A stretch of 64,000 bases of DNA. Source: an uncultured Chlamydiae bacterium (lineage in GTDB: Bacteria > Chlamydiota > Chlamydiia > Chlamydiales > Parachlamydiaceae). The position numbers were made by a program, and so were the translations under genes. The stretch covers positions 64,884-128,883 of the forward strand of contig CAWHMU010000036.1 of the NCBI GenBank assembly GCA_963830365.1, in the 5' to 3' direction. The notes below the pieces were generated by a model that worked only from the letters and a program-made list of their open reading frames with translations, searched no databases and was not told where the DNA came from. This document shows, one piece after another, positions 36,349 to 59,173 of the stretch. Each line of letters begins with the position of its first letter. Position 1 is the stretch's first letter.

Positions 36349-36375
36349 GTGTTTTAAATAAATATCTGGTCTAAT

Positions 36376-40196: not shown

Positions 40197-40397
40197 TCGT
40201 TTAAATGTTTAATCATGGAAGACTTATGGACACGTACAATTTAGACGTCTTTGGAGACTTTTTGACAGCCCAGGTCGGGCTTGACATTATGGCATTCTCT
40301 TTTCAATCACATATATTTATAAAATATTTTAATTAAATTAAAAATAACGATCTTTTATTTATAAAAAATTAAGTCGAAGTGTAATTTCATGTTTTGA

Positions 40398-41027
40398 TTA
40401 GATGGATCGCAAGATAGTGCGACTCCATTGATTGCCAAGATGCAGGACAGGTCTGCTAGTGGTTGTATTGAATAGAGTCATTAGTCTTATTTTGGTATCT
40501 GTTAACCAGACCCTAACGTTCGATCCATTTATTGACATATCCGGATAATGTCGAACTTTCTTATATGCCCAGTTGATACCATTATAAGCTGATTGAGCAA
40601 GTGAGGGTAACGCTAATATCACAGCTGCAATGCTAACAATATGGCGAGGATGCCAAGGATTAACGACAAAAATAGTATTAGGTCCACACACTTGTTTGAG
40701 TTGAGAGGTAGAAAAAAAACATCCTATCAATGAGGATATGATGAAAACCCCTGGATAAGAAACACCTGCACTCAAAATCAGTGAAATCTTAGTGCAAACA
40801 ATCATTACGTTATTGGCTACTTGAATCCATTTAGGATAGTCTGAACAAACATCGGTTGTAATTTCATGATCTCTTGCTAGATGATAGATGTGATAAATCT
40901 CAACTAGTCCAAACACAAAGGTTACGGTGCCGGTGATGTTTTTTACACCTTCCTTGACTAGCGGCTGATTGAGTAAGCGAACGGAGTCATTAAATAGATA
41001 TTTCGCTGCTCCTGAAATTGAATTCAT
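40398..41027 (-). CDS. Hypothetical membrane protein with bilobed hydrophobic segment (Inc-like topology)
   Basis: Hydrophobic pairs TGTVTFVFGLVEIY and VMIVCTKISLILSAGVSYPGVFIISSLIGCFF. A good SD (AAGGAAG) lies 5 nt upstream of the ATG. The ISL3 element begins 17 nt upstream of the ATG. Confidence 0.5.
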   Translation of the reverse strand: MNSISGAAKYLFNDSVRLLNQPLVKEGVKNITGTVTFVFGLVEIYHIYHLARDHEITTDVCSDYPKWIQVANNVMIVCTKISLILSAGVSYPGVFIISSLIGCFFSTSQLKQVCGPNTIFVVNPWHPRHIVSIAAVILALPSLAQSAYNGINWAYKKVRHYPDMSINGSNVRVWLTDTKIRLMTLFNTTTSRPVLHLGNQWSRTILRSI

Positions 41028-41044
41028 GACACTTCCTTATTTAT

Positions 41045-42371: not shown

Positions 42372-42648
42372 TTATTTATCATACTGAAACACAAAAAATG
42401 GGATTCATGCGTTGTGTAGCATATGCTAATCTCTCGATCCGCTATTATCCGATTGCTATGGGCACTAAAGTGGTCCCCTTTGTCTAGACAAAAAATGGGA
42501 AAAGTTAAGCTAATAACCTCAAGTTTTTGTTGTTCTTGCAGCTAAAGGGGGAGTTTGAGGGGGCTTGCCCCCTCAAGTTCCTTTAAAAATCAAGGTAATC
42601 CAAGTCCAACGAAGGCGGAAGGGGGGTAAGGGGGCTTGCCCCCTTTTC

Positions 42649-43491
42649 CTAAAGGCTCTGCCTAGAAAAATACACCTCCGCAGGCGTTTTATAACCCAGT
42701 CCTTGGTGTGGCCTGCTCTCGTTGTAAAACTTAAAATAACTCTTAAGTCCATTACGGACATCTTTTAAGCTTTCATACCCTTTTGGATAAATCTCTTCAT
42801 ACTTCACGCTTCTCCAGAGCCTTTCAATAAACACATTATCAAGGGCTCTGCCTTTTCCATCCATACTGATTCTGACTCCGCCTGCTTCTAATCTCTCTAC
42901 AAACCGACAGCAGGTGAATTGAACTCCTTGGTCTGTGTTGAATATCTCAGGACTAGCTCGAGAAAGCCCTCTTTCTAATGCATTAATGCAAAATTCCGCA
43001 TCCAGCAGATTCGAAAGTTCCCATTCGATCACATACCTGCTAAACCAATCGATGATCGCAAAAAGGTATCCAAATCCTTTCAACAAAGGAACGTAGGTGA
43101 TATCTGCAGCCCATGCCAAGTCGGGTTTATCTACTACAATCCCTCTTAGTAGGTAAGGAAACTTTTTATGCTCCTTATTTGCCGCACTCAGATTGGGCTT
43201 GGGATAGATTGCTTCTAAACCCATTGTCTGCATCGCCGTTCGAATCCTTTTTCCTCCTACAAAAAAACCTTGAGCTCTCATTGCTATCGTCATCCGTCTT
43301 CTTCCATAGAAGGGAGTTTGAAGATATTGTTCATCAATAGCCCGCATGAGTGCCAAATCTTCCTCGTTGGGCTGTTTGGCCTTATAATACAACCCAGATC
43401 GTGACATTCCAAGCAAATGACACTGACTTGATAGCGACAACTTCTTATGATCTGGCTCTATTAGAAGTCGTCGAGAATTTAAGTCAAACAT
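42649..43491 (-). CDS. IS3-family transposase OrfB (copy 2)
   Basis: Identical to 38538..39380 except for one residue (K11E). Confidence 0.9.
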   Translation of the reverse strand: MFDLNSRRLLIEPDHKKLSLSSQCHLLGMSRSGLYYKAKQPNEEDLALMRAIDEQYLQTPFYGRRRMTIAMRAQGFFVGGKRIRTAMQTMGLEAIYPKPNLSAANKEHKKFPYLLRGIVVDKPDLAWAADITYVPLLKGFGYLFAIIDWFSRYVIEWELSNLLDAEFCINALERGLSRASPEIFNTDQGVQFTCCRFVERLEAGGVRISMDGKGRALDNVFIERLWRSVKYEEIYPKGYESLKDVRNGLKSYFKFYNESRPHQGLGYKTPAEVYFSRQSL

Positions 43492-43778
43492 CCTAACTTT
43501 TTTTTAAGCCACTCCACCTCCATTTTAAGACGTCCGATTTGCTCGAAAAGTTCTGCCTTTTCTTTAACTTCCTGTGCTGTCCCAGTCATCTTGCTCGGTT
43601 TTTCAAATACAGTTGTGGCAGTTGATAAAAAGTGTTTTTTCCACTCCGACAACACGATAGGATGCACTCCCAGTTCACCGGATAATTGACTTGCAGTCTT
43701 TTCTCCCTTCAAAATCTCAAGCACGGCTTTGACTTTAAATTCTGGGGGATATTTTTTTCTTGTTCGGCTCATTTTCAC
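43479..43778 (-). CDS. IS3-family transposase OrfA (copy 2)
   Basis: Translation identical to 38251..38550. The slippery heptamer is at 43497..43503 (minus strand). Confidence 0.9.
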   Translation of the reverse strand: MKMSRTRKKYPPEFKVKAVLEILKGEKTASQLSGELGVHPIVLSEWKKHFLSTATTVFEKPSKMTGTAQEVKEKAELFEQIGRLKMEVEWLKKKLGCLT

Positions 43779-44011
43779 CTCTTTTCTTAAAGAGGGTATT
43801 AGCTTAGACCATTGTCCAAATTTCCGGGACCATTATACACTTTGCTGAATTTTCTGATCTAAATTCAATGAATTTGCTATCGGGATAGGCCTGACATTCG
43901 CCATTGACAAGTCGATGCAGGGGAAAGCGGCGACAAGTCGCGCGCAGTGTTGGAGTAGAGAGGGTCTGCGACCCTTTGGCGGGGGATGATTAAGGGGGCT
44001 GGTGCCCCCTT

Positions 44012-44060
44012 GATTGCCTAAAACAGGAATCGAACCTGCGACCTGCGCGTTACGAATGCG
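44012..44060 (-). repeat. Distal att-type direct repeat: duplicated 3' part of tRNA-Thr (positions 28-73 plus 3 nt)
   Basis: 49 bp identical to 58624..58672 except one position (T at 44037 versus C at 58649). It is immediately preceded (43992..44011) by the hairpin AAGGGGGC-TGGT-GCCCCCTT, plausibly the original tRNA terminator. Confidence 0.9.
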
Positions 44061-44343
44061 GGGGAAGTCACGACAATCCAATATTAACCAGCCGCTTTGA
44101 GCATCATGATAGAGGGATTTTGCTTAAAATGCTATTGGATTTTATCGGATGTCGACGGTTGAATAGGTAAGCCGTTGCACCGCGATTGCACCGCCAAACA
44201 CAGATCAAAAGTTGGTGAGTGTTTATTACAGTTACATAAAAAAACAGCCTTTGTCCACCTTGGAAAAACATTTCAAACGAGGCCAATTTGAACCTTACCG
44301 TTACATCGCGTTACATAAATCAGGCCCAAAGGTAGAATGCTGT

Positions 44344-45051
44344 TTAATTAAATAAATCGCCATTTAAGGAATTGCTGGAATCAACCTTGTTTTGCCAATC
44401 TTTTTGGTTAATCCATGTACCTGCAAATTTAAGGTAGTCAAAATACGTTAATTCATTTTCTTTCAAGTCGCATGATTCGCACATTGCTGGCAAAGCAGCT
44501 TTAAATGAATTATAACGTTCTAAGATAGCAGTCTCGCCTGGTATTGTTTCCTTGGAGTAATGGTTAAGCCATTTTCTAATAACTCCAATCAATTTTTTTT
44601 TGTTATTCCGATGAAAAGATATATCTTGGCCGGCTATATCAGATAACATTTTCTGATAGCGATATTCTTGTTTATCTAAAATTAAACAATTTTTGTTGTT
44701 TTGCTGACTGTCACCGAATGCTTTTGCTCCAAGAAAGAGACCCAATTCAAGAGGCATATTAAATCGCGGTAAACCTGAATTTTTGCTTAATTCGATTCGA
44801 GATAGATCATGAATCCCAAAGCGACACTCACGGATTATTTGGGTGATTTTTTCAATTCGCACTTGCCCACTGTCATGGACCTCTTTCGAACAGCGAGGGG
44901 CAAAGCCACAATCGATTATTGAAAAAACCATTACATTAAATAATGGTAAATATTTCTTATCGAAAGGGCAATTGATGAAGACCTGATTATCATAGGTCGT
45001 CTCTCCAAATATGGTGGGAAATTTAGCTGCGCCATTTCCGTTTATTATCAT
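44344..45051 (-). CDS. Hypothetical protein with N-terminal TIR-like / nucleoside 2-deoxyribosyltransferase-like (flavodoxin-fold) domain
   Basis: QVFINCPFDKKYLPLF ... ECRFGIHDLSRIE...LPRFNMPLELGLFLGAK follows the pattern (beta1 vF.s.pF; ..aDls....N.N...ElG.a.g) that I recall for TIR-like/NDT-like nucleotide-processing domains. The C-terminal ~100 aa is unassigned. Confidence 0.5.
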   Translation of the reverse strand: MIINGNGAAKFPTIFGETTYDNQVFINCPFDKKYLPLFNVMVFSIIDCGFAPRCSKEVHDSGQVRIEKITQIIRECRFGIHDLSRIELSKNSGLPRFNMPLELGLFLGAKAFGDSQQNNKNCLILDKQEYRYQKMLSDIAGQDISFHRNNKKKLIGVIRKWLNHYSKETIPGETAILERYNSFKAALPAMCESCDLKENELTYFDYLKFAGTWINQKDWQNKVDSSNSLNGDLFN

Positions 45052-45185
45052 TTCTTTTTAGGGTCTGATTTTTTTGCCACAGCGTTTTTGACTGCTTTTT
45101 TGACATCATCTAATCTTAAATTACCTTTGTGGGCTATTGCCTTAGGGATTTTTACAGTCCTTGTTTCTTTTTTCTTTTCGCTCAT
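45048..45185 (-). CDS. Micro-ORF (45 aa, Lys-rich) translationally coupled to the TIR-like gene
   Basis: My own translation: MSEKKKETRTVKIPKAIAHKGNLRLDDVKKAVKNAVAKKSDPKKK. AAGGAA SD 6 nt upstream. Its TGA overlaps the downstream ATG (ATGA at 45048..45051). It is too short to appear in the supplied ORF track. Confidence 0.45.
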   Translation of the reverse strand: MSEKKKETRTVKIPKAIAHKGNLRLDDVKKAVKNAVAKKSDPKKK

Positions 45186-45433
45186 ACTTATTCCTTATGT
45201 GGATCTATATTTTTTTCAAAAGCCGATTGTTTAATTCGGTCATAGAATCATTCGACGCAATTGTTCTAAAATTGCTCGCGGTCAATTATTTGGTCAATTA
45301 TTTCTATAATTGCTTCCTTATTGCTCACGATCGCAATTGATGTATGAGGCGCCCCTTTGCCACGGCAAATATACTGAGCATTAGCTCCATGACCTTTGAT
45401 TTGGTCGCGGTAGGGGCATCTATAAGGCCAAAA

Positions 45434-45865
45434 TTATGTTGATGAGATTTCTTGCTGGGCTAATGAAAATAGACAGCCACGCAATCTTGCCTTATCGGAA
45501 AGTTTACTGCTGATTGATACAACTCTACCTTTTGAAGGGATTTCAGAGAAATCGATCAAACAATGAGATGGATCATTTACAGGAGTATTTAAAGGATCTT
45601 GTTGAATATGTAGGTCACCGATTTCCCTGATTTCTCCAACAGAAACACCCCATACACCAGAAGATGAAAGCTTTCTTTCTTCAGTATAAAGCCTATAAGC
45701 ATCTTCAGGAGAGGTTTTAGAATCGCGATTGACTGAAAGTTTGTTTTGATCTTTAAGAGTGGGCCTAAAAGCCTGGCTTGTGATTCTCCCTTCCTGAATC
45801 CATGCTGGGTGAACTTGACGTAGGAGGATTTCGTCTTCATCATCAAAAGTAGATTGAGTTGTCAT
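45434..45865 (-). CDS. Hypothetical 143-aa protein (toxin-sized), second gene of a coupled pair
   Basis: ATGA start/stop overlap with the upstream 390-aa ORF. Conserved-looking blocks LLRQVHPAWIQEGRITSQAFRP, LSVNRD and DPSHCLIDF. No motif that I can assign to a named family. Confidence 0.6.
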   Translation of the reverse strand: MTTQSTFDDEDEILLRQVHPAWIQEGRITSQAFRPTLKDQNKLSVNRDSKTSPEDAYRLYTEERKLSSSGVWGVSVGEIREIGDLHIQQDPLNTPVNDPSHCLIDFSEIPSKGRVVSISSKLSDKARLRGCLFSLAQQEISST

Positions 45866-47034
45866 CTTAAACGGGTCTCGAGTAAATCTTTTAGAAAATG
45901 TGATCCTTGTTCTGGAGCTAGAGGGTCATCTAATCGTAATTTTTCCTCTCTTATTTCTTCTCTTTTTGTATGAGTTGCTTGTAAAATAATAGTTTTTGTT
46001 GTGAATTCAAATAAGCAATTGACTTCCCAAAATCCGAATGACCACTCGGCTATAACGCTGTTTTCAGGAGAGGGATAAACAAATGGTGCTGGAATATCTG
46101 CAATTTTGAGCAGTTTTTCAATCCACTCCTTAGTATCACATAAATCCTGACTGTCAAATGCCAACCCCTCACCATCCAACCAGCCATTTTGATATTTCGT
46201 AAACTCATCTATACGTTTATTAGGGTTAGGAAAATAGTTTGGTTCACCGTTTCTAAAAATGGCAATGTGTTGGAGGCGTTCGATTTGAGCTATTGAACCA
46301 TCGGGTTGATATTTTGCGAGTCCAATTAGAGTAACAGATATTTCTTCTTTTTTATATTTTGACGCTAAATCTCTTAGAACAGTATCAAAAGTATCGCTTA
46401 GTGGGCCGATAATACGCTCTCCATCTCCTACCACAAGATTAAAGACACCGCTTTCCACCTCGAATCCAGATATTGCACCACTCAAATAGCAAATATCTTG
46501 ATATGATTTCTTATTTATGGATAGGACCTGGGATCGAATATCTCTTGAATATATTGGTGCATTATTTTTTCCAGGGATTTTCAGAGTAATTGTTTCATCT
46601 TGTTTTAAATGCTGGCCAAAACGACCGAACAAGGGAATAACTTTTTCTGGAAAATCATTAATGCCCACAGAGTTTTGTTTCACTTCATTCTGAAGAAAAA
46701 GGAGTTGTTCATTGATAAGATCTCTCGCTTGATCAAATTCATCATTTATCCAGCTTTCTTGATCATAGCTCCTTTCAAAAACAGGCACTGTACTACCAGA
46801 CTTAATTTCTGCTACTCCAACATTGAATCTAGATTCAAATTTTTTCGGGATTCGCACTTTATTTGGATTGTTTTTGAGATACAACTCTTTTGCAACTGCA
46901 ACAACGATATCTAGATAAGCAGTAAGATCAGGAAGAATCGGATATGCTAAAAAAGGAGTTGGACCATCAAATCTTCCACCTTTCAAAATCTGTTCTAAAA
47001 ATATTTGCTTTTTGGTTGTCATGGAGTAAAACAC
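45862..47034 (-). CDS. Hypothetical 390-aa protein, first gene of a coupled pair downstream of hsdR
   Basis: Long uninterrupted ORF starting 73 nt after the hsdR stop. No P-loop, nuclease or HTH motif recognised. The C-terminal block NGWLDGEGLAF...PAPFVYPSPENSVIAEWSF resembles a widespread uncharacterised W-D-G-x-G ... P-x-x-(D/E)-G-S-I-x-x-E-W module. Confidence 0.6.
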   Translation of the reverse strand: MFYSMTTKKQIFLEQILKGGRFDGPTPFLAYPILPDLTAYLDIVVAVAKELYLKNNPNKVRIPKKFESRFNVGVAEIKSGSTVPVFERSYDQESWINDEFDQARDLINEQLLFLQNEVKQNSVGINDFPEKVIPLFGRFGQHLKQDETITLKIPGKNNAPIYSRDIRSQVLSINKKSYQDICYLSGAISGFEVESGVFNLVVGDGERIIGPLSDTFDTVLRDLASKYKKEEISVTLIGLAKYQPDGSIAQIERLQHIAIFRNGEPNYFPNPNKRIDEFTKYQNGWLDGEGLAFDSQDLCDTKEWIEKLLKIADIPAPFVYPSPENSVIAEWSFGFWEVNCLFEFTTKTIILQATHTKREEIREEKLRLDDPLAPEQGSHFLKDLLETRLR

Positions 47035-47107
47035 GCCTCGTTCTGGGTCTGAACCAGAGTTTTTGTTTATGATAGCCCAATTAATTTAGCAAATCAACTC
47101 AATAAAT

Positions 47108-50100
47108 CTATTTAATAGCCTCAGCTTGTTTGAGAACGGCATCAAGCGTAGTTTCAATAAAATCTTCGGGGTACTCGCGCTTTCGCAAAATTCGCCTGAT
47201 GGCGACCTTCATGCGAGCACGGGCGTTGTCTTTCAAACTCCAGTCGACAGTAATGTTTTGTTCTACAGTAACCAAGAGATCATGGGCGATTGATTTGAGC
47301 TTGTCTATAGTCACATATTGGGAGGCAGGACTAAGTTCGAGAGCTTCAAAGTATGCAAACTCTTCTTCAGTAAGACCTAGTTCAGCGGCACGTGTATGGC
47401 AGCCTCGCATTTGTTTGGCCATTTCGACGAAATATGAGATTGTTTTGGCTGCGTCTATTTGTCTGTCACGGTACTTTTTAATAGCATTTTCCAAAAGCTC
47501 TGTGAATTTGCGTGCTTGTGCTACATTCTTTTTAGAACGTTGTTTAATCTCATCGTTTAGGAGCCGTTTGATCAATTCCAGAGCCAGATTTTTCCTGTCC
47601 ATCTCTTGAACTTCGGCTAGGAATTCGTCGGAAAAAATAGAAATATCAGGTGATTTGAGACCGGCTAAAGCATAAATGTCGATTACTTCTTGAGATGTGA
47701 TAGCCTTTGAGACCAGTTGTTGAATGGCTGTATCGACCGCTTCATCTTTGATTACTTTAAGAATAGTCTTTTCTTTGACAAACTGCGCCTTAACGGTTTG
47801 GAAAAAGCACACGTCGTCAGAAATTTCCCTGGCTTCATCTGTGGCAGCTGCTAATGCAAATGCTTTTGATAGCTCTGAAACTAGCTTGATAAACCTATTT
47901 TTGCCCTCTTCAGTCTTGAGGATATAATCCGTCGCCATTGCAATGGCGGAAAGTCTGTTTTTTGAAATTTTGGACAAATAACCTGAATAGTCTAAACCCT
48001 GGAACATTTCGCGGATGAGCTCGAGTTTTTCCAGTGTGAGAGAGACTGCATCTGCAATCGGAATCCCTGTTTCCCCCTTATCTGAAGGAGAGTATTCAGC
48101 AAGAGCCTTTTTTAGATCCTCTGCAATGCCTAAGTAATCAACAACTAGCCCACCTGGTTTATCGCCAAATACTCGATTAACCCGAGCAATAGCCTGCATT
48201 AGATTATGTCCCTTCATAGGCTTATCGATATACATCGTATGAAGACAGGGGGCATCAAAACCTGTAAGCCACATGTCGCGAACAATTACCAGCTTTAAGG
48301 AATCTTCAGGGTTTTTTAGGCGTTTGGCGATCTCGTCTCGTTGAGATTTACTCCTGATATGGGACTGCCACGCCGTGGGATCAGAGGCAGAGCCGGTCAT
48401 TATCACTTTTAGGATGCCTTCCATGTGATTGTCATTGTGCCAGCTCGGACGTAGCTTGATGATTTGGTTATAGAGATCGACGCATATACGGCGACTCATA
48501 CATACAATCAACGCCTTTCCTTCAATGCGTCTCAAACGTGCTTCGAAGTGTTCAACAATATCTCTCGCAATTTGAGCTAGTCTTTTTTCAGCGCCTACTA
48601 GTACTTCTACACGTGCCCATCGAGTCTTTAGCTTCTTCTTTTGAAGTTCTTCTTCGCCTTCAGTAACCTCTTCAAAGCTTTCATCTAATGCTGGGCGCTC
48701 TTGTTCGTTTAATTCAATTTTTGCTAATCGACTTTCGTAATAAATGGGAACTGTTGCCTTATCTTCGACGGCACGATGAATATCATAGATATCAATGTAG
48801 TCTCCAAAAATAGCTGGTGTATTTTTATCCTGCTGTTCAATAGGAGTGCCAGTAAAACCAATAAATGAAGCTTTTGGCAGCGCATTGCGCATGTTTTTAG
48901 CAAAACCATCAATGAAGTCATATTGAGTGCGATGAGCCTCGTCAGCAATCACCACGATGTTATTTCGATTGGAAAGGGTGGGGTAGGTATCACCTTTTTC
49001 TTCAGGAGAAAACTTCTGAATCGTTGTGAATATGACACCGCCCGATTGACGATTTAAGAGTTGCTGTAGATGATTTCTAGACTCTGCTTGTAAAGGCGTT
49101 TGACGAAACAATGCCTCGCAACGGCAAAAAGTACCGTACAGTTGATCATCTAGATCATTTCGATCGGTTAAAATGACAAGAGTAGGATTTTGCATGGAGG
49201 GGTTTGCGATCAACTTACCGGCATAAAACGCCATTGTCAGGCTTTTACCTGAGCCCTGTGTGTGCCAAACAACACCAGCTCGTCGATCTTTTTCTTTTGC
49301 CGCTAATGTGGACTGAATTGCCTTATTGACTGCAAAATACTGGTGATATCCAGGAATCTTTTTCTCTATCAGAGTTTCTTCTTTATCACCACTTTCAAAT
49401 ACCACAAAATGACGGATTAAATCGAGTAAACGATCTTTAGGAAAAACCCCTTTGATAAGTGTTTCTAATTCTGGGGTGGCTCTTGAAGCTATATTTTCAC
49501 CGTCAACCGATCGCCAGCTCATGAAGCGTTCAAATTTAGTGAAAAGTGCTCCCAATTTTGCCGAATGACCATCCGAAATAATAAGAAGTTCATTGGTTAA
49601 AAATAATGAAGGAATGTCTTTAAAATAGTTTTGGAATTGTTGAAAAGCATCTTTGATGGTGACCGATTCTTCTGAAATAGTTTTGAACTCGAATACCGCT
49701 AGAGGTAAACCATTCAAAAAGACCACCAGATCTGGTCGTCGTTCTCTTTGCCCTTGAATGGTAAATTGATTGACGACCACCCAATCGTTTTGCTGGGGAT
49801 TTTCATAATCGATCAATTTGATTTCTTCGTATGCAATTCCACCTTCTGGATCTGTTTTTTCAATCGATATGCTATTAACTAGATGGCGATGCATTACTTT
49901 ATTGGATGCCAGAAGATCGAGAGAGCCTTCTGATAATAGACGCTTGATTGCTTCTTCAATAATAGGGGGAGAAGCCTTTGGATTAATGCGTTTTAGGGAT
50001 TTTCGCAATCTTTGTTGGAGGATCACTTCGCTGTATGAATTTCGTTCAGCAAATGATTCATCCGGAGCAATATCGGGACCATAGAGGATAGGATAATCTA

Positions 50101-50149
50101 GTTCTCTAAACCAGTCGAGGGCTGCTTGTTCAACTGTTTCTTCGTTCAT
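47108..50149 (-). CDS. hsdR: Type I restriction enzyme, R subunit
   Basis: 1013 aa. N-terminal nuclease-like region, SF2 helicase motifs ([10 protein letters not shown]; [10 protein letters not shown]; GFTGTP; motif [10 protein letters not shown]). Confidence 0.93.
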
Positions 50150-50157
50150 CTACATCC

Positions 50158-51459
50158 TCATATTATTTTTGAAACCAGTTTATCTGCATCCTTGATCCTG
50201 ATTTCGCCACTGATGAGTTTGGGGAGAAGATTATCCCGAATTTCAACGAGTTGTCTATTTTCAAGGATGTTCCCTGAAATTCGTTTAATTAATGAATTGA
50301 CGGTTGAATGGAATAATGAATATACGGAAGAAGTTGGTGAGATAGTATCTAAATCTAATATGTCATTTTTCCTGACTCTTTGATGGCTTCCAGATGTACC
50401 AGTTACAGCCCCGATCATTTTAGTGCGACATGATTCGCTCTTAAGATTCCAATAAAGGAAACTACACATGTTGTTTTGTTTAGGTAAAAAAGCAACAAAT
50501 TCTGTCGAGGAAATTGATCTACCAGGAAAATTGTCAAAGATCTGCCAAACTCTTGGTGTTATTGGATTCAACTTGGAAACAAGAATGGCTCCCGATGGCA
50601 AAATTAGTTTATTGCTTTTTATTGTGCTACCTAATGCTCTTGAAGGCATTTTACCTGAATCAAATGCAGGAATGCTATAAAGATTAAAGCTCTCATCTGG
50701 AAATTTACTTGGATTTATCGTGCTTTCTCCCATGTGTACGATGTCACGAAGTTTTCCAACCTTCCATCCCTTAGGAATTCTACCCAATTCAGAATCCTCA
50801 AAACTGTCAGGGAAAAGGGTAGCTATCTCATCGCTCATGCCATCAGGATTGCGCCCCTCTGATTTGGCTTTCACCGGATCGAAATCGATGAACCAGCTCT
50901 TGAAAATCGTTTGAGTAATCCCCTCAAGCGTTTCATTCATTTTGCGATTAATCTCGATCTTATTGTCAAATGTGCCAAGGATGTGAGCTATAGCTTTTTG
51001 CTCGCATAGAGGTGGTATTCGTAAAGTATATTGACCAAGAACTTGTGCATTTGCACCTGCTTGAGCAGAGCCTGTCTTTGAAGAGGCTACAAAATTCCAC
51101 CAATCTGCCGAACGCATTTGATACCAAACAAAAAACGGATCGGCAATCTTTTGATTAATTCTGAATCGGATTAAGTATGACGCAAATACTGTTGGCTCTG
51201 AGCCCTTATAAATGTAATTTTCTCCAGTGCTATTTCCGGTTCTAGCCACCACAATATCACCATAACTGAGAAGATATTTATCCAACTTGTTTTGAGTGAT
51301 TTCGCAATACGGAACGGATTGCCAATTAACCACACCATTTTGTATATCCGTTATGCGTAAGAATTTCGGACCCACTGGATTAGCATTAGCACTTGCTGTG
51401 AAACCATATGATACATCACACGCTAGATCAGCTAAACGGCGATATTGTTCAGTTGCCAT
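50158..51459 (-). CDS. hsdS: Type I restriction-modification specificity subunit
   Basis: 433 aa with two variable target-recognition halves. Each is followed by the conserved helical spacer (..[23 protein letters not shown].. and ..[18 protein letters not shown]..). Overlaps hsdM by 11 nt. Confidence 0.9.
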
Positions 51460-53044
51460 AACCCAGCACCTCTAGGTTGCGACGGATTATAGTATCAAGA
51501 ACTTTTGCTTCCTCCAGTTGCTGATAAAGCTTAGCTGTTAACTCTTTCATCTTTTCGTCAAAGGGCATACCTTCCTCATCCGATAGCTCGGTGCCAACGT
51601 AACGCCCTGGCGTTAATATATAGCCATGGCTTTGAACTTCTTCAAGTTTGGCGCTTTTGCAAAAGCCTGCAATATCCTTATACCCTTCCATAAATTCACT
51701 ATTTTCAGTCTCGACCTTCTCTCCCCGCCAAGAATGATATGCATCGGTGATTTGACTAACCTCCTCATCTTTGAGACTGCGATGGGTTCTGTCTTCGAGA
51801 AAGCCCAAATTGCGAGCATCTATGAAGAGTATTTCACCTCTACGGTCACGTAGCCGTGTATGCTTGACGATACCGTTGCTTCGATCCTTTGCAAGGAACC
51901 AGAGACATACAGGAATTGGCGTGGTATAAAATAGTTGACCAGGGAGGGCAACCATACAATCGATCATATTTGCTTCAATCAGAGCCTTTCTGATCTCGCC
52001 CTCACCACTTTGATTGGAGGACATGGATCCATTAGCAAGAACAAAACCAGCAAAACCGTTTGGAGACAGGTGATGTACCATGTGTTGTACCCAAGCAAAG
52101 TTGGCATTTCCCGCCGGGGGAACTCCATATTGCCAGCGGCGGTCCTCTTTAAGGCGTTCACCTCCCCAATCACTAATATTAAAGGGGGGATTGGCTAAGA
52201 TGAAATCAGCACGCAAATCCTTATGAAGGTCGTTGTGAAATGTGTCTGCGTAATGGCTGCCGATATGGCTGTCGATGCCGCGGATGGCAAGATTCATCTT
52301 ACAGAGGCGCCACGTCGTAGGATTGCTTTCCTGCCCATAGACAGAGATATCACCTACTCGTCCTCCATGTGCCTCAACAAACTTTTCTGATTGAACAAAC
52401 ATGCCACCTGATCCGCAACAGGGGTCATAGACCCGTCCATGATAAGGTTCGATCATCTCGACCAATAACTTCACTACTGCTTGAGGTGTATAGAACTCGC
52501 CTCCCCCTTTTCCCTCGGAACTAGCAAACCTGCCAAGAAAATATTCGTATACTTTTCCCAAAACATCTTTAGCGCGATGCTCCTTGCTGCCGAGGCCGAT
52601 GCCGGCGATAAGGTCAACTAATTCCCCAAGGCGTTGCTGATCAAGAGAGGGTCGAGAATAATCCTTTGGTAAAACGCCTTTGAGAGAGGGATTTTCTGAT
52701 TCAATCGCTCGCATGGCATCATCAACTAACTGCCCTATTTGGGCTTGCTTGGCATTTTGTTGAATATGGGCCCACCTAGCAACCTTTGGAACCCAAAAGA
52801 CGTTAACAGCTTTGTACTCATCGCGATCTTCGGGATCAGCTCCGGAAGCTGCGTCTTCTAGTAATTTCTGATGGTGTTCCTCGAAAGCGTCTGAAATATA
52901 CTTGAGGAAGATGAGTCCCAGCACGACGTGTTTGTACTCCGAGGGGTCAAGATGACCCCGTAATTTATCTGCTGCAGCCCATAGCTTCTGTTCTAAAGTC
53001 TGAGAATCGGAAGAAGTTTTCTTCCCTGTGCCTTTCTTTGCCAC
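51449..53044 (-). CDS. hsdM: Type I restriction-modification N6-adenine DNA methyltransferase subunit
   Basis: HsdM N-terminal domain ([26 protein letters not shown]), SAM motif [12 protein letters not shown], catalytic ILANPPFN. Confidence 0.93.
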
Positions 53045-53307
53045 GATGGTGCTCCAAGCGAATGTTTATTTCGCACCCTAGCACAAAACTTGAAATCTTA
53101 TAAATAAATTTAAATAATTTCGGGGTTATTAGGAAGCAAAGCCAATTTCACAGCCAGAAACAGCACAGATTTCGGCTGTAAGAGCTGCAAACTATGGAGT
53201 CAAAATAAACTGACTTGTCTCAAACAGCACCCACTTACCTAAAAGAACGCCGTCAAAGGGTCAAGGCATAAATCCGAAAATATTTTTTTTCCAAAACAAA
53301 CCCATTT

Positions 53308-54174
53308 CTAGAATGTTCCTTGCAGCTTTTTCAAGAGAATAAGATTCTGAAAAATTGATTTTTGCAGTGAGCGCTCATACTTCAGGGTTTTGTCTGCATT
53401 CTCCGTTTGGGGGATTATGCCGAGCATGTAAGTGAGTTTGTTTGATGCGTCATTCTCTAGTTTTTGTTTCGTCAACTTTTGTATTTCTTCTTCGAAACGC
53501 TGATTCTGTTTGGTGTAGATCTCTAGGAGTTTGGCTGATATCCCTTTTGCATCGGTATAGCCGTTTTTTTTCAGAAGGGCTTGCAGCTCGTCAAAACTAA
53601 AGTCGCCAGAATAATACAGTTTTTTACTCTCTTCCGTCGTTAGAGAGCTGAACGACTTGGCGATCCGGTAGAAATCATCGATGATGTCGCTCTCAAAGGC
53701 ATTTCCTTTCCATATGGGTTTATCAAAGGTTACTTCGCCTTTGGCGAGGCATCCAAGATAAGACACATTCCAGGCAAAGAGCTGTTTTTTATGTTGGATC
53801 TCTTCATCGATTTTTTCATTGTTTTGATTCCCATGCGAATAGAATTCTTTAAGTAGTGATTTGACACGATGAGCGATGCTTCCAGTCTCAAACCTGATTG
53901 TGCGACGTAGCCTCCAAAAGTCTACTGCAATTTTTTCAACAAGCAAGCTTTCCATCTGATTACATGGAGATAGGCAGTCGACTAGGTTATTCAAAATTTC
54001 TCGATATTCGTCTTCGTTTTCATGCTCTATGTCGGATTTCAGGATCAGGTCTTTTGTAAAGATACCGTGCTTGATGGCATTTGTCGAAACGATCATCTTT
54101 CCATTTGCAGTCGTTGGACCTGTGGAAAGCAGGGCATTTTGGCAGTTTGATTCAATTTGTTTTTGTGTGGTCAT
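53308..54174 (-). CDS. Hypothetical island protein
   Basis: 288 aa. The N-terminal motif NCQNALLSTGPTTANGKMIVSTNAIKHGIF resembles a recurring N..NA..STGP.T..GK..S..NA.KHG leader seen in many uncharacterised bacterial proteins. The rest is coiled-coil-like. Confidence 0.55.
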   Translation of the reverse strand: MTTQKQIESNCQNALLSTGPTTANGKMIVSTNAIKHGIFTKDLILKSDIEHENEDEYREILNNLVDCLSPCNQMESLLVEKIAVDFWRLRRTIRFETGSIAHRVKSLLKEFYSHGNQNNEKIDEEIQHKKQLFAWNVSYLGCLAKGEVTFDKPIWKGNAFESDIIDDFYRIAKSFSSLTTEESKKLYYSGDFSFDELQALLKKNGYTDAKGISAKLLEIYTKQNQRFEEEIQKLTKQKLENDASNKLTYMLGIIPQTENADKTLKYERSLQKSIFQNLILLKKLQGTF

Positions 54175-54236
54175 TGTTTCCTCCTTTGAATTTCCGATTT
54201 CTGATTTCCCTATAGGATCGGAAATCGGAAAGTTTA

Positions 54237-55952
54237 TTATTCTTTAATAAGTCCCTGGCTTTTAGCCTTTTTCTTCCTTGTCTCAACTTGTGACTTGGTC
54301 AGTCCCGTTTTAATCATGATTTCTTTGATTGTAAGCCCCTCATTAATTGCCTCAGCAACCTCATTCAATTCGATGTCATCATCGGATTCGCCAATTTCCC
54401 ATTCCCATAGTCCATCGCTTTGTTCTTTTAACTGCACTTTAAAAGGGGCGGCGTCACTGCCGGCGAAATGTCTTGTCTTTTCGTAATGGATCTCAAAGCA
54501 AGCTCCTTGCTCTGTGCCATAACCTTGTGGCTGCTTAAGGGTTATCACAACATCGAGAATGTCTTCCCTTTTACTTGTGCCCCGCTGTTGGCCTGTTTTT
54601 CCGGCGTGATGAACAAAGAGAATTGATTTGCCTCGTCTTCGCATATCAAGAGCCCAGTCCTGAACTGGCTGCCAACTTTCGGCCTCGTTCTCGACTCCAG
54701 TGCGAAAAAGGGATGACAAATTATCGACAATAATTAATTCACTATCACCGATAAGTTCTTCTAAAAGGGCTCGTCCTTTTGTTGTAGATAAATCAGGCAA
54801 AGGTCCATCTTGAAGATCAGGAGTAATCAAGCGAAGATAATCTGGTGCAGGAGGTTTCTTGTCTTCAGTGAGAGAAATTCGCCTAAGTCTCTCCTGCATT
54901 GCTGCTGCAGGCATTTCACCGTCAATGTACAATACCTTCCGCGGCTTTTGTGCCTCCCATTTCAAAAAACGACCCCCTACCGCTACCGCATTAGCTATAC
55001 CCAGCGCTACATGCGTTTTCCCAACTCCTCGTTTTGCATATAGAAGACAAAGCCCCTGGCTTGGAAGAAAAGGTGTTAAGATCATTTCCCGCTCAGGTAA
55101 TTCCATCTTCAAAAAATCCTCGACAGTTACCGCCCGGATTTTCGCTTTTGCTCCTTGGGGTATGTAGTCAGGTGTTTTAGCAAGTATTTCTAAAAGTCTG
55201 GTCGAAGTGTTTCCAGAGGCCAACCAATCGCTAATATCCTTCCCATGTGATTCCTGATATTCTAGTCCCGGTAACGTCACAACCCAAAGACGCCTTACTC
55301 TTCCACTAAGCCTTTGGCACAACAGGTCACGTCTTTCAAAACCTGTTTTGTCCATATCGTAGAGAATTACTATGTCGGCATCTTTTAGAAATTCTGTGAA
55401 TTCATCAGGCCAAGAGAGAGAATCGATTGAGGTTGTCGCTGGAAGTCCGCATTCAAGAAGCTTATCAGCATCCTTTTCCCCTTCGACAAGGAAAATTGGC
55501 TTTTTATTGGAAATGGCATTTAAAAGCTCAGGCAATCGGTAGAGGACTTTTCTGCAACCCTTCAGATTTTTGATTGTTTGACCATTCTCAGTATGTTCAC
55601 AAAAGAAATCTTTAGCTTTTCCATTGAATCCAGGTTCAATGCGAACTTTTCTATAAAGCTCTTGTCCTTCCTCATCTTTATAGGAGTAAACAATACGCTT
55701 TGTTTCTCGGCGCTCATTTTTTGGTGTGCCAAATAGTTCGGCTACCTCTATGTTTAACGATCTGCAAATATCTTCGACAGAACATCCTGAGAAACATTTT
55801 AATAGAATTTTGCCGTCAGCAGCTTCGCCTACTGAAAAACTTGGACTCTCATCATCATGAGCAGGGCAGCAGGTCATATACCCGTGACTCGTTTTCTTGA
55901 GGTCTTTCCCTGTTTTTGATTTCAGAGTTTCAATAAACTCATTTAATTTCAT
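54237..55952 (-). CDS. Bifunctional primase / RecA-like (RepA/AAA_25) replication protein, P4-alpha-like, with C-terminal HTH
   Basis: CHC2-type zinc motif CCPAHDDESPSFSV...C..C, TOPRIM FLVEGEKDADKL..DMD, Walker A AKRGVGKTHV, Walker B LIIVDNL. Confidence 0.85.
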   Translation of the reverse strand: MKLNEFIETLKSKTGKDLKKTSHGYMTCCPAHDDESPSFSVGEAADGKILLKCFSGCSVEDICRSLNIEVAELFGTPKNERRETKRIVYSYKDEEGQELYRKVRIEPGFNGKAKDFFCEHTENGQTIKNLKGCRKVLYRLPELLNAISNKKPIFLVEGEKDADKLLECGLPATTSIDSLSWPDEFTEFLKDADIVILYDMDKTGFERRDLLCQRLSGRVRRLWVVTLPGLEYQESHGKDISDWLASGNTSTRLLEILAKTPDYIPQGAKAKIRAVTVEDFLKMELPEREMILTPFLPSQGLCLLYAKRGVGKTHVALGIANAVAVGGRFLKWEAQKPRKVLYIDGEMPAAAMQERLRRISLTEDKKPPAPDYLRLITPDLQDGPLPDLSTTKGRALLEELIGDSELIIVDNLSSLFRTGVENEAESWQPVQDWALDMRRRGKSILFVHHAGKTGQQRGTSKREDILDVVITLKQPQGYGTEQGACFEIHYEKTRHFAGSDAAPFKVQLKEQSDGLWEWEIGESDDDIELNEVAEAINEGLTIKEIMIKTGLTKSQVETRKKKAKSQGLIKE

Positions 55953-55965
55953 TGAAGTCCCTTTA

Positions 55966-56172
55966 TTAATCTTTAGAAGCTTGGCTTTCGATCCAATCGT
56001 CGAATAGATCTTTTCTTAGATAAAGGCGTTTGCCTATTTTGCGGATGGCGACTTCAAGGCCATTTTTGTGACGCATGATCAAATAATGACGCATTTGACC
56101 AAGGGAGAATGGATAGCTGCTCGATTCGGAGATTTGTTTGATACTTAAATATTGATAATCACTCATAGGCAC
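55966..56172 (-). CDS. AlpA/excisionase-family small DNA-binding protein
   Basis: 68 aa. YLSIKQISESS...LRKDLFDDWIES matches the MerR-like excisionase HTH layout. It sits between the primase and the integrase module. Confidence 0.65.
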   Translation of the reverse strand: MPMSDYQYLSIKQISESSSYPFSLGQMRHYLIMRHKNGLEVAIRKIGKRLYLRKDLFDDWIESQASKD

Positions 56173-56288
56173 ACCCTCGAATTGATTTGTTAGAGTTTGC
56201 GCCTAATGGTATTGAATGAAGCTGATTATCCTCTCACACTATGAGTGACACTTTTGTTTTTATAACGAAAACGACTGATTATTAATGG

Positions 56289-57413
56289 TTAATGTGTTAT
56301 TTGTGGCTGATATCGATGATCGAATTCAACTGGTTGAGAAAGGAAGGTTTTAAAAGTAATTTCACCTTGTGTTTGGTAAAAGTCGAGTTTTTGTATGGTA
56401 CGCCTTAAAACTCGATATAAGCTCTCGTCGGTACTTTGAAAAATTCTAGACCTTGGTTGTGCACCTGGAATTTCAGAAAGAGCTTTTAAAAAGTTCCATA
56501 TTGTTTCTGAACACGGCACAGGTAGCCAATCGAATATGGTCGGAAGAGAAAGTGAAGGAAGGTTCTTATCAGAGGGGTTCTCTAAAGCCTTTATAGGAAG
56601 GTTGAAAAGGTCATTCAAAGCTATGGGAAGCCGAAGACGGGAGCTCGTCAGGCATATCCAGCACATTCCAAGGGTTTCGGCTGCTCCCAATTTGGCATTT
56701 TGCCTACCGCATATTACTGTATTAACTAGTTCACGGATAATATCAGCTGCATTCATAATATAGATTGGAAAAACAGTTGGTGGAATTTTCCGGGCAATCT
56801 GTCCACAAGGAACCTCTTGGAATTCTGAAGTTAATGTTCCTGTTTTTACTTCTTTCAAAGTGGTGATTCTTCGAATTTCCATGTCTTCCGGGAAAATCAG
56901 TTCCAAAAATGCGATTTGTCTTTTGGAGATCGACTGGCGGAGGTGATTCAGAAAGCCGCTCAAGGCGCGTTCCCAAAAAAAGAGAAGCTTCTCTTTGTTT
57001 TCTACAATGTCTCGCAACCTGATGATATAATCGTACAGTGTTTCTCCTTTGTTAGGCTCCTCAAGATGATAATCAGCAAAGTCCACAGGATTAAGAAAAT
57101 ACTCGATATATTCGCTGTCAGGGGTAGCATTCTTTTCAATGTCCGTTTGCCAGTTACTATAGTGTGTAGAAGCCAAGCTTCTAGATGCTTCCGATTGATA
57201 GGGAATCTTAGGTAAAGGTGCCATCAAAACCGTTCCGATATCATCGGTGCCATAGATCCAACACCGAGCTAGTTCCTTTCGCCAGTTATCTTCCGATACA
57301 GGAGAAAAATCAGGATTAAGAGCCCGTGTGGTATCATAAAAGTGTTGTTTCTTTTCTAGGTCTGATTGGAATTGAAGTAAGATTCTTGTTAATCCATCAA
57401 GGTTGTATTTCAT
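56289..57413 (-). CDS. Hypothetical protein overlapping the integrase 3' end by 17 nt
   Basis: 374-aa ORF directly downstream of int. No recognisable catalytic motif. Confidence 0.5.
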   Translation of the reverse strand: MKYNLDGLTRILLQFQSDLEKKQHFYDTTRALNPDFSPVSEDNWRKELARCWIYGTDDIGTVLMAPLPKIPYQSEASRSLASTHYSNWQTDIEKNATPDSEYIEYFLNPVDFADYHLEEPNKGETLYDYIIRLRDIVENKEKLLFFWERALSGFLNHLRQSISKRQIAFLELIFPEDMEIRRITTLKEVKTGTLTSEFQEVPCGQIARKIPPTVFPIYIMNAADIIRELVNTVICGRQNAKLGAAETLGMCWICLTSSRLRLPIALNDLFNLPIKALENPSDKNLPSLSLPTIFDWLPVPCSETIWNFLKALSEIPGAQPRSRIFQSTDESLYRVLRRTIQKLDFYQTQGEITFKTFLSQPVEFDHRYQPQITH

Positions 57414-58476
57414 TTTTCCCTCTCAATAAGCGGTTTTCAATGGATTCACCGATAAAACGTGTTGCTTGTGCATCTAGGTGGGAATAGTGGTCGGTCATGC
57501 TGGCTGTAGCGTGCCCGAGTTGGGAACGGAGCTGCTGTCCGCTAGCACCCAATTGCCCACCAATAGAACAGAAGTGGTGTCTAAGTCCATGGAAAACGAA
57601 ATTATTGATTCCCGCGCGACTTAAAGCAGATTGCCATGCCTTCTTGATGTCGAGTCTTCCAAAGGTCGTTTTGCTGGCAAAAACCAAAGTCTTGGTTATA
57701 TCACGGATAATATAAAGGCGTTGAAGTTCTTGGATGACACTGTCAACTAGTCCCACACGGCGCGGGCGGCCATTTTTAGAGTCTTTGATATGGGCGAATC
57801 GATTTTCAAAATCGATGGAATCCCACGTTAAGTTTAAAATCTCACTTTTTCTGGCACCGGTCGTGATTGCCATTAATACGATGCAATAGAGGTATGGGTT
57901 TAGGCTTTGCCGGCATGCTTGAAGGAGTCGGTTCTCTTCATCATTGATGAGGGCGCGCCGTTCTTTCGGTTTGGTTTTTAACTGGAGCAAATTTATGCAT
58001 GGATTTTCATCGATCCAGCGAAGATTTTTGCATGCATATCTGAAAGCGCCGCCGAAAGTGGCAAAATATCGATTGACTGTTGCAGGATTGCGGCGCCCAC
58101 CTCGACTTGTAGGCGTCTCGGCTAGTTTTTTGCGCTCTTGTAAAAGTAGTTCTGGTGTGATGTACATCAGTGCATAATCACCAAGCTTTTCCCGGAAGTA
58201 ATTTAACTGTCGAATGGTGTCTCTGGCTGCTTTATGATGTCCGATCACAGCATCCTGGATGTAAACGTCGATGAGGCCGGCAACAGTCTTATTCTGTTTT
58301 GTTTGATTAGAGGTGTATTTGCCTCGCTTAATCTGTTGCTCGGTATCGTGGGCCCAATCATCCGCTTCTTGCTTGCGATCGAAATGTTCACAAACAGTGG
58401 GGTGACCTTTTATACGGATGACGGCGCGCCAAACTTTGGTGCCATTATTATTTGTTCTTTGGTAGATAGATGCCAT
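57397..58476 (-). CDS. int: Tyrosine-type site-specific integrase
   Basis: Catalytic residues in context: TTGARKSEILNL (R), HGLRHHFCS (H-x-x-R), MTDHYSHL (Y). N-terminal SAM-like arm domain. Adjacent to the tRNA 3' end. Confidence 0.92.
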   Translation of the reverse strand: MASIYQRTNNNGTKVWRAVIRIKGHPTVCEHFDRKQEADDWAHDTEQQIKRGKYTSNQTKQNKTVAGLIDVYIQDAVIGHHKAARDTIRQLNYFREKLGDYALMYITPELLLQERKKLAETPTSRGGRRNPATVNRYFATFGGAFRYACKNLRWIDENPCINLLQLKTKPKERRALINDEENRLLQACRQSLNPYLYCIVLMAITTGARKSEILNLTWDSIDFENRFAHIKDSKNGRPRRVGLVDSVIQELQRLYIIRDITKTLVFASKTTFGRLDIKKAWQSALSRAGINNFVFHGLRHHFCSIGGQLGASGQQLRSQLGHATASMTDHYSHLDAQATRFIGESIENRLLRGKNEIQP

Positions 58477-58623
58477 CTTAAACCCTTTGTTGATTTTGGT
58501 TTAAGCGGCTGGGGTGCTGGTAAAACTATTTTTCACTGCACCGTGATTGCACCGCGGCACATATTTTTAACTTAAGCGATGATATCGGATCAAGTTAAAT
58601 CGTGCTCACAAGTGCTTGTATGG

Positions 58624-58672
58624 GATTGCCTAAAACAGGAATCGAACCCGCGACCTGCGCGTTACGAATGCG
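58624..58672 (-). repeat. Proximal att-type direct repeat (within and just 3' of tRNA-Thr)
   Basis: Partner of 44012..44060 (48/49 identical). Confidence 0.9.
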
Positions 58673-58699
58673 CTGCTCTACCAACTGAGCTATTTAGGC
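58627..58699 (-). tRNA. tRNA-Thr (anticodon CGU)
   Basis: The minus strand reads GCCTAAATAGCTCAGTTGGTAGAGCAGCGCATTCGTAACGCGCAGGTCGCGGGTTCGATTCCTGTTTTAGGCA. It has a 7-bp acceptor, D arm GCTC/GAGC, anticodon loop TTCGTAA and T arm GCGGG-TTCGATT-CCTGT. It closely resembles E. coli thrW as I remember it. CCA is not encoded. Confidence 0.9.
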
Positions 58700-58798
58700 A
58701 TAGATAGAGTAGTGTAGGGTATTGTTGTTTTTTGGCCAATAGCAAGTTGTGTAGTATGAGTCTTCACCTTAATTCGCCGGGCTGTTAGGCTGGCGCAT

Positions 58799-59173
58799 AT
58801 GGAAGATATATATATTTTACAGATCGGTGAGGCCGATGGCCTCCATCTTAGTGCTGGGGGGCGCATGCAGGCTTTGGCCGCCGGCAGGGCGCTGGTCGGG
58901 CATGCCATCGCTTCGTTATGCTATAGTTCTTTTGGCGGGGCCAAAGAGACGGCTTTGATCGTGGCCGGGGTATGCCATTGCAGTCTGCATCCTTTAGACG
59001 ATTTTGAGGTGGCTTTGGCGCGGCCGGCGCCGCTATTATTTGTGTTGGCGCAAGCTGAGATGATGAATATGAGGAAGAAGGCTGGCTTAGAGAGCATTGA
59101 CTTCCCGGAGGCTACGCTCAGCCATGTGTATAAGCAGCTGGGAAAATGGACTGTCGAGGTGCTGCTGGCTTAG
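58799..59173 (+). CDS. Short histidine-phosphatase-like protein lacking the catalytic RHG motif
   Basis: IYILQIGEADG..LSAGGRMQALAAGRAL...CYSSFGGAKETALIV parallels the PGM/SixA pattern (l.RHGE...Ls..G..QA...g..L...ySS...RA.qTA), but RHG is replaced by QIG and the protein is only 124 aa. Confidence 0.35.
   Translation: MEDIYILQIGEADGLHLSAGGRMQALAAGRALVGHAIASLCYSSFGGAKETALIVAGVCHCSLHPLDDFEVALARPAPLLFVLAQAEMMNMRKKAGLESIDFPEATLSHVYKQLGKWTVEVLLA

Follow-up and report, generated by a model that had tools for sequence, protein, structure and literature searches.

A tRNA-integrated island of an environmental chlamydia represents an apparently undescribed family of probably self-replicating mobile elements

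A 64,000-nt stretch of the genome of an uncultured member of the Parachlamydiaceae (hereafter the window; contig CAWHMU010000036.1 of assembly GCA_963830365.1, positions 64,884 to 128,883) carries an island inserted in a tRNA-Thr(CGU) gene, which we take with good confidence for a mobile element in its integrated form, site-specific and probably self-replicating, that belongs to a family of environmental chlamydiae. Few mobile elements are on record for chlamydiae, which live as obligate intracellular bacteria. A preliminary description of this DNA, made from its sequence, had proposed an integrative island in tRNA-Thr(CGU) flanked by attachment (att) repeats. This proposal is borne out by an empty site in relatives, by a repeat with two copies, and by the presence of the same backbone at other tRNA genes, each time with repeats of its own.

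The island is inserted into the 3' part of tRNA-Thr(CGU)

The empty sites came to light when we looked in metagenome assemblies for the proteins most similar to prfC. Two metagenome contigs from different runs (L048 and L049), each with an 87% identical prfC and a tRNA-Thr(CGU), continue from the tRNA directly into AATTAAGGGGGCCTTGCCCCCTTAATAATCCCCCACCAAAGGGCCACTGGCCC, the homologue of window 44011-43950. The joined flanks of the window (59200-58624 followed by 44011-43842, minus strand) align unbroken through the junction at position 577 (aligned positions 485-637), with 86% identity to L048 and 85% to L049. Because the empty site of both contigs aligns across the joined flanks, a true insertion into tRNA-Thr(CGU) is strongly supported; the preliminary description had suggested looking for such an empty site in relatives, and both contigs have one. 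The features of the insertion site are as follows.

58627-58699, minus strand: intact tRNA-Thr(CGU) (Rfam RF00005, 66 bits; ARAGORN 58626-58700)
58624-58672: attL core, 49 nt, direct repeat (48/49), containing the 3' 46 nt of the tRNA
44012-44060: attR core, the displaced 3' part of the tRNA, direct repeat (48/49)
43950-44011, minus strand: native double hairpin downstream of the tRNA, the chromosomal flank of attB (from folding and the empty-site comparison)

This tRNA is the single one that ARAGORN calls in the window, Rfam places it at the coordinates first given for it, and an Rfam scan of the island returns no RNA family besides it. The repeat spans tRNA positions 28-73 plus 3 nt, and our repeat search agrees with the earlier reading of a 49-bp copy, 48/49 identical, at 44012-44060. 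From the spacing of the two repeats the inserted DNA measures 14,612 bp, which corrects the 14.7 kb of the preliminary description while leaving the island itself in place. In the window a 35-nt core pattern is matched twice, where 100 shuffles lead one to expect 0.00 matches, and a 39-nt pattern, with a tolerance of three mismatches, hits exactly two places in the assembly (2.73 Mb in 48 contigs, 82% complete). Copies at many unrelated loci had been named as a finding that would speak against the island; the genome holds these two. The lone mismatch between them (58648 C, 44036 T) falls on tRNA position 52: G52 still pairs with C62 in the intact tRNA, and the distal fragment carries A52.

The hairpin abutting the distal repeat (43992-44011) has an 8-bp stem and a 4-nt loop, with a second hairpin next to it (-23.9 kcal/mol, z = -4.0). 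Because it follows the tRNA at the empty sites and follows other tRNAs in the genome, we identify it as the native 3' element of tRNA-Thr, displaced by the insertion. It had been taken for the displaced terminator of the tRNA; its native origin and its displacement stand, while "terminator" in the strict sense is unproven. The hairpin lacks a U tract and so is not a canonical intrinsic terminator. The same double hairpin lies immediately 3' of tRNA-Tyr (contig C14), tRNA-Ser (C25) and tRNA-Arg (C41), and directly beyond the outermost tRNA repeat of L037, a related element described below. The module, AAGGGGGC..GCCCCCTTAA.AATCCCCCGCCAAAGGG...CCCTCTGGACTCC, which stands directly 3' of several tRNA genes in the genome, resembles a tRNA 3' terminator or processing element that lacks a U tract and is specific to this lineage. 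Its further copies are these.

C14:29880-29970: double hairpin
C14:30270-30360: double hairpin
C25:41880-41985: double hairpin
C41:42095-42170: double hairpin

A conserved backbone, two arms and one cargo slot

Nucleotide comparison with two related elements at tRNA-Thr, L037 and L045, divides the island into parts of different kinds. Against L037, window 58707-53139 aligns at 76% and 44200-44015 at 80% identity, with nothing between; against L045, 58654-53139 aligns at 78% and 44194-44032 at 83%, again with nothing between. Because homology ends sharply on both sides, at 53139 and at 44194-44200, in these two independent comparisons, the island consists of a conserved backbone of ~5.5 kb, a ~140-nt attR arm and one cargo slot (44201-53138). 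All island genes lie on the minus strand, in keeping with the co-orientation noted for the listed genes in the preliminary description, and the backbone open reading frames (ORFs) are all open. The conserved parts comprise the following features.

57397-58476, minus strand: tyrosine integrase Int, 359 aa (PF00589 1e-28; phrog_1 3e-58)
56289-57413, minus strand: 374-aa backbone protein, with a 17-nt overlap with the int stop
55966-56172, minus strand: small helix-turn-helix (HTH) protein, 68 aa, 13 nt upstream of the primase-helicase
54237-55952, minus strand: primase-helicase, 571 aa, with CHC2 zinc finger, Toprim motifs, AAA_25 helicase and C-terminal HTH
53308-54174, minus strand: 288-aa backbone protein, helical/coiled-coil, the family marker
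53139-53307: conserved non-coding stretch of ~170 nt at the backbone end (blastn homology)
44061-44200: conserved non-coding attR arm (blastn to L037 and L045), with the arm motif at 44176-44194
58537-58555: attL-arm motif TGCACCGTGATTGCACCGC (reverse complement GCGGTGCAAnnnGCGGTGCA), repeat D17

The integrase starts 150 nt from the tRNA, which agrees with its first description as a tyrosine integrase next to the tRNA, and has a complete catalytic set (R209-K234-H296-R299-H322-Y331) that is invariant in the family alignment (A4). The gene of the 374-aa protein is translationally coupled to int, and the overlap between the two is kept in L037 and L045. This second protein has no match in Pfam, NCBIfam, PHROG or PADLOC and only 13 homologues among 5.8 billion proteins. 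An AlphaFold2 model built from the 13-sequence alignment reached a pLDDT of 82, and Foldseek paired it with the recombinase XerH (5jk0; probability 0.94, E 0.04, 349 columns) and with phage integrases and poxvirus topoisomerase IB (probability 0.92-0.93); tyrosine recombinases were the only meaningful matches, all at E-values above 0.01. Neither hhalign of its profile against the integrases of the elements nor a PDB sequence search gave a match. R259, within an LTSSRLRLP motif, and R334 are invariant, and position 368, the possible site of a nucleophilic tyrosine, is Y, F, C or T, leaving no conserved tyrosine. We give an even chance to the reading that the 374-aa protein is a diverged, probably inactive recombinase-fold partner of Int.

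The 68-aa protein is 55-86% conserved in L037 and in two further elements, L038 and L020. It matches HTH_17 below threshold (E 0.007-0.0014) in three of five family members; it has no Phage_AlpA match, and a PDB profile search gave only spurious matches. Of its earlier designation as AlpA-like, the small HTH is retained, and a match to the AlpA family is not clear. It is a candidate excisionase or regulator. The 288-aa protein has no family match in Pfam, NCBIfam, PHROG or PADLOC; it forms 391 clusters in the 5.8-billion-protein collection, mostly of 283-288 aa, and its model, of moderate quality (pLDDT 70), yields only generic coiled-coil fold matches.

The primase-helicase matches the dnaG domain of TIGR01391 and phrog_239. 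Its zinc finger is recognized by CHC2 (PF01807, 6e-7); Toprim motifs can be read from the sequence (LVEGEKD, YDMDKTG); and the helicase part matches AAA_25 (PF13481, 7e-28), a RepA/DnaB-like domain of helicase superfamily 4 (SF4). The best PDB match is RepA of RSF1010 (1g8y, 2e-4). In chlamydial loci the protein is 63-84% identical, and relatives of the protein come chiefly from chlamydial metagenome-assembled genomes (MAGs). A tblastn search of 50,697 phage records found only ~27% identity, to actinophage primase/helicases. The zinc finger-Toprim-SF4 layout is common to T7 gp4, the actinophage primase-helicases and RSF1010 RepA; similarity to these is distant, and the chlamydial protein differs in its extra C-terminal HTH and in being encoded on an integrative island.

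The non-coding DNA of the arms is conserved as well. The ~140-nt attR arm is 80% identical to L037 and 83% to L045, although the neighboring cargo is unrelated. The motif GCGGTGCAAnnnGCGGTGCA occurs on both arms, in the same orientation and relative place, in all three tRNA-Thr elements (window, L037 and L045), and in the genome it is found at the two island ends only. It is a candidate arm-type binding site for Int or a recombination directionality factor. At the other boundary, 53139-53307 has 75% column identity across four elements (alignment A6) and terminates exactly at the cargo junction (..GTGAAATTGGCTT). RNAalifold gives it weak support, with three compensatory pairs from four sequences; the stretch may function as an origin or a promoter, or may encode an RNA.

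Related elements occupy tRNA genes of other environmental chlamydiae

Five relatives of the island were delimited.

L037, JGI metagenome: ribE-prfC-tRNA-Thr(CGU) context as in the window, perfect 46-nt repeats, 11.3 kb; cargo DUF3800 and unknowns
L045, Logan contig of 14,550 nt: both ends inside the tRNA-Thr core; cargo DUF4357, an inverted type I restriction-modification (R-M) system and SocA_Panacea
L020, genome contig: tRNA-Met, 51-nt repeats, 14.5 kb; cargo EcoEI-type R-M, T5orf172 and PD-(D/E)XK; int frameshifted
L025, genome contig: tRNA-Asn, 48/48 repeats, 11.4 kb; cargo DUF4379 helicase and Schlafen/AlbA_2
L038, Ca. Protochlamydia phocaeensis: 63-nt repeats, 13.7 kb; cargo type I R-M and HEPN

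Backbone proteins of L037 are 63-86% identical to those of the window. The 63-nt repeats of L038 match the tRNA-Met 3' repeat of L020, and ARAGORN calls no tRNA in the L038 locus. L038 keeps the int, 374-aa, 68-aa and 287-aa genes, with a DUF927-type replicase replacing the DnaG/RepA-type protein. The terminal overlap of L045 was considered as evidence of a circular form and rejected, because a k-mer assembler breaks at the repeated 46-49-nt core regardless.

The 288-aa marker occurs in 56 of the 401 genomes sampled, which represent 43 of 212 genera, in one order and with a patchy distribution, which corresponds to ~14% of the sampled species of the phylum. By the sequences sampled, the element family appears so far only in environmental chlamydiae of the order that contains the Parachlamydiaceae. 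In other genera tRNA-Thr(CGU) is accompanied by different integrases, integrase fragments or R-M genes, and in one genus by an IS200/IS605 element only. tRNA-Thr(CGU) is an insertion hot spot across the Parachlamydiaceae.

Several loci show additional structure. L037 has a third, older copy of the tRNA-Thr 3' end, 80% identical and 2.3 kb past attR (16781-19103), with a BNR_4 gene between; this copy looks like tandem accretion at the same attB. Beyond it lie a perfect 72-nt tandem palindromic repeat (19259-19402) and a Fic/ParD pair. In L038 (4485-20864), a DUF1016/YhcG nuclease gene stands between int and the 374-aa gene, and a second integrase-led element follows in tandem. L016 (G013:C20, 2000-15000) is syntenic with the window (prfC 79%) and is a decayed relative at the tRNA-Thr hot spot: of its integrase the first ~125 residues remain (70% identity), its type I R-M system is a different one, and two more partial copies of tRNA-Thr lie 11-13 kb away.

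The cargo of the window element is predicted to serve defense

The cargo genes of the window are these.

51449-53044, minus strand: hsdM, type I methyltransferase (PF02384 6e-110; PADLOC MTase_I 7e-230)
50158-51459, minus strand: hsdS, with two target-recognition domains (PF01420 in two stretches)
47108-50149, minus strand: hsdR, 1013 aa (TIGR00348 3e-193; PADLOC REase_I 1100 bits)
45862-47034, minus strand: PDC-M32A, candidate defense gene (PADLOC PDLC04575 2e-64; phrog_30544)
45434-45865, minus strand: PDC-M32B (PADLOC PDLC04579 7e-40; phrog_31579)
44344-45051, minus strand: 235-aa protein with a weakly TIR-like N-terminus (PF10137 E 0.0025, below cutoff)

Family profiles match all three hsd genes, as the preliminary description had anticipated, and hsdM, hsdS with its two target-recognition domains, and hsdR, in one operon, make up a complete type I R-M system. 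The four ORFs that this description had left as unknown can now be sorted: two are PDC-M32A and PDC-M32B, adjacent genes with a 4-nt overlap that cover their profiles in PADLOC-DB 2.0 at near full length; one is the weakly TIR-like protein, which has no PDB match and no family match besides the sub-threshold PF10137; and the fourth, a 60-aa reading frame at 44104-44286 that extends into the conserved non-coding attR arm, probably does not represent a gene. Other family members carry type I R-M, T5orf172, PD-(D/E)XK, Schlafen/AlbA_2, DUF4379 helicase, DUF3800, HEPN and SocA_Panacea genes in their cargo.

Comparison with phage satellites and other integrative islands

P4-like satellites resemble the island in their tRNA-adjacent integrase, in a small HTH gene before a primase-helicase with a C-terminal DNA-binding domain, and in serving as a defense hotspot. 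Phage-inducible chromosomal islands (PICIs) are alike in size and in having int, a regulator, a pri-rep module, att repeats and accessory defense genes. The island could accordingly be read as a phage satellite in the P4 or PICI sense, its excision and replication induced by a helper phage and its DNA packaged in helper capsids. The size of the elements (11-15 kb), the order int, small HTH, primase/helicase and cargo, and defense cargo in a hotspot as in P4-like elements agree with this reading, as do the PHROG relatives of M32A and M32B, by which similar genes exist in phage genomes. The replication module, however, is of another kind: P4 alpha unites a primase with a superfamily 3 (SF3; D5-type) helicase, whereas the chlamydial element has a DnaG-type zinc finger and Toprim with a RepA/DnaB-type SF4 helicase. 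No D5/SF3, Pox_D5 or P4-family primase model in Pfam or NCBIfam matches it, and the "P4-like, alpha-type" label of the preliminary description gives way to CHC2, Toprim and AAA_25/RepA-like.

The genes by which satellites exploit their helpers are likewise missing from what we could recognize. No island protein matches psu, sid, delta or epsilon (Pfam, PHROGs, NCBIfam), and the element differs from P4 also in lacking a clear AlpA match and a P2-like helper. Unlike PICIs, it has no terS, capsid-remodeling or packaging-interference genes, with no terS, ppi, cpm, capsid or packaging-interference match among the island proteins in Pfam, PADLOC, PHROG and NCBIfam; its unknown backbone proteins have no PHROG match, the assembly shows no Terminase_6N, and no tailed helper phage is known in chlamydiae. 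The chlamydial phages described to date belong, to our knowledge, to the small Microviridae, whose capsids have no room for 14.6 kb and could not package the island. The layout is satellite-like, membership of the P4 family is not supported, and we consider a phage satellite very unlikely.

The closest functional analogue appears to be the tycheposons of Prochlorococcus, as far as published architecture, rather than a hallmark gene pool, allows comparison; PICI-type islands stand beside them among the closest analogues. Tycheposons, which their describers define by a shared pool of hallmark genes, are 10-20 kb long, carry a tyrosine recombinase, an excisionase-like gene and a primase/helicase, and use tRNA sites (bioRxiv 10.1101/2020.12.28.424599). 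They leave partial tRNAs, have modular cargo and tandem degraded copies, and lack capsid and conjugation genes (bioRxiv 10.1101/2020.12.28.424599). Tandem pile-up at one tRNA is also seen in L037, L020, L038 and G013. The differences are the host phylum, the cargo, which here is defense and in tycheposons nutrient acquisition, and the 374-aa and 288-aa backbone proteins, which have no annotated relatives.

Proposed cycle and mobility of the element

Recombination within the 3' 46 nt of tRNA-Thr(CGU) inserted the 14,612 bp; the tRNA was restored with a 3' part carried by the element, and the original 3' end moved with the native hairpin to the far end. For the further cycle we propose that Int, using the arm sites GCGGTGCAAnnnGCGGTGCA on both arms, would excise the element as a circle, possibly with the small HTH protein, the 374-aa recombinase-like protein or both as accessories. 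The primase-helicase would then replicate the circle, its C-terminal HTH binding an origin in the backbone. The circle would reach new cells by a route not encoded on the element, Int would insert it at the tRNA, and the host would acquire restriction and abortive-type defense from the cargo. As the route of transfer, helper conjugation or DNA uptake seems more likely than capsid hijacking.

Several observations count against a mobile, self-replicating element. Family scans find no relaxase, coupling protein, terminase or capsid gene on it, and the coupling protein T4CP (PF02534), the MOB relaxase (PF03432) and Terminase_6N are absent from the 82%-complete assembly, so that a search of the genome for helper prophage or conjugative functions, which the preliminary description had recommended, came back negative for these three. 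A tandem-repeat search found no convincing iterons and located no origin. The only sequencing run in which the element turned up, a small sediment run of very low depth (6% word share) with 151-nt contigs identical to the window, contained the occupied attR junction only and no excision joints. In relatives, int is frameshifted (L020) or present only as fragments (G012, G013, G003), and because some family members are decaying, the copy in the window could be immobile. The defense role of PDC-M32 and of the TIR-like gene, finally, is a database prediction.

The decayed relatives at the same hot spot, the insertion sequence (IS)-rich left flank 170 bp from attR and the lack of excision joints in that one low-depth run would all suit a fixed remnant, that is, a formerly mobile island now immobile and retained for its defense genes only. 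The state of the window copy argues otherwise: none of its five backbone ORFs is interrupted, Int retains the full active site, the att repeats match at 48/49, the arms and their motifs are conserved, and the backbone is 76-78% identical at the nucleotide level to L037 and L045, both of which also have open backbone ORFs. A fixed remnant strikes us as quite unlikely.

The missing transfer genes bear on a different alternative, an integrative mobilizable element that borrows the conjugation machinery of a co-resident plasmid or integrative and conjugative element through a cryptic oriT, with the 374-aa or the 288-aa protein as an unrecognized relaxase or accessory. F-like transfer systems are present in Parachlamydiaceae (PMC548262), the island offers two conserved unassigned proteins and conserved non-coding DNA in which an oriT might lie, and among plasmids the primase part is matched most closely on small ones, mobilizable or non-mobilizable. 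Set against these points are the lack of a relaxase domain in the island proteins, the absence of PF03432 and PF02534 from the assembly already mentioned, and the fold of the 374-aa protein, which suggests a recombinase rather than a relaxase. We judge an integrative mobilizable element of this kind to be unlikely. A bolder version of the self-replicating mobile island that we favor, in which the elements are chlamydia-specific, self-replicating integrative "cargo shuttles", analogous to tycheposons, that spread among obligate intracellular hosts with neither capsid nor conjugation genes of their own, for example by DNA uptake between cells sharing an amoeba, and in which Int works with the 374-aa protein, a catalytically dead partner of recombinase fold that acts as a new kind of directionality or synapsis factor, is speculative, and we hold it to be unlikely.

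Significance of the element family

In a full-text search of the literature we came across no account of small replicative islands that integrate at tRNA genes of chlamydiae; it yielded a single chlamydial island, the F-like conjugative one of Protochlamydia amoebophila. The mechanism that we propose is familiar and involves no new principle, and what is apparently undescribed is the family of mobile elements in obligate intracellular bacteria. Because its marker occurs in ~14% of sampled species, the family may be a main route of defense-gene exchange among environmental chlamydiae. The cargo slot, with its sharp junctions, is a natural place for seeking new defense systems, and the backbone contributes two proteins without family assignment, of which the 374-aa one may be a pseudo-recombinase. 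The integrase and its 46-49-nt tRNA target make up a well-delimited recombination system that lends itself to study in E. coli and might later aid the genetics of amoeba symbionts.

Flanks of the island

On the right of the island, a family scan of the window ORFs gives the following order.

Right of the island: 124-aa ORF, prfC, fucosyltransferase-like gene, ribE

The nearest relatives of prfC are from Parachlamydiaceae (83% in a MAG, 81% in Ca. Protochlamydia amoebophila). The 124-aa ORF (58799-59173), which separates the tRNA from prfC, shows no more than a weak, partial match to histidine phosphatases; L037, L048 and L049 have a NUDIX gene in its place, so that the right flank varies among relatives too.

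On the left, 170 bp of native sequence separate attR from an IS3-family copy at 42465-43841. This copy and a second at 38188-39564 are inverted twins that differ at three of 1377 positions (38190, 38571 and 38909), and the 2.9 kb between them hold an ISL3 transposase and two small ORFs; the IS3 and ISL3 transposases each have ~10 copies at >90% identity in the genome. An older accretion spanning 31975-44011 was considered and rejected: a third, older att copy was sought in the window and none is present. No att copy ties the arsenic-resistance-like block of this region to the tRNA-Thr site. That block, at 32195-34955, consists of an S-adenosylmethionine (SAM) methyltransferase, ArsR, an Acr3-type SBF transporter and one more ORF; next come a beta-carbonic anhydrase gene and then an IS4-like element (36208-38013), which lies to the left of the IS3/ISL3 block.

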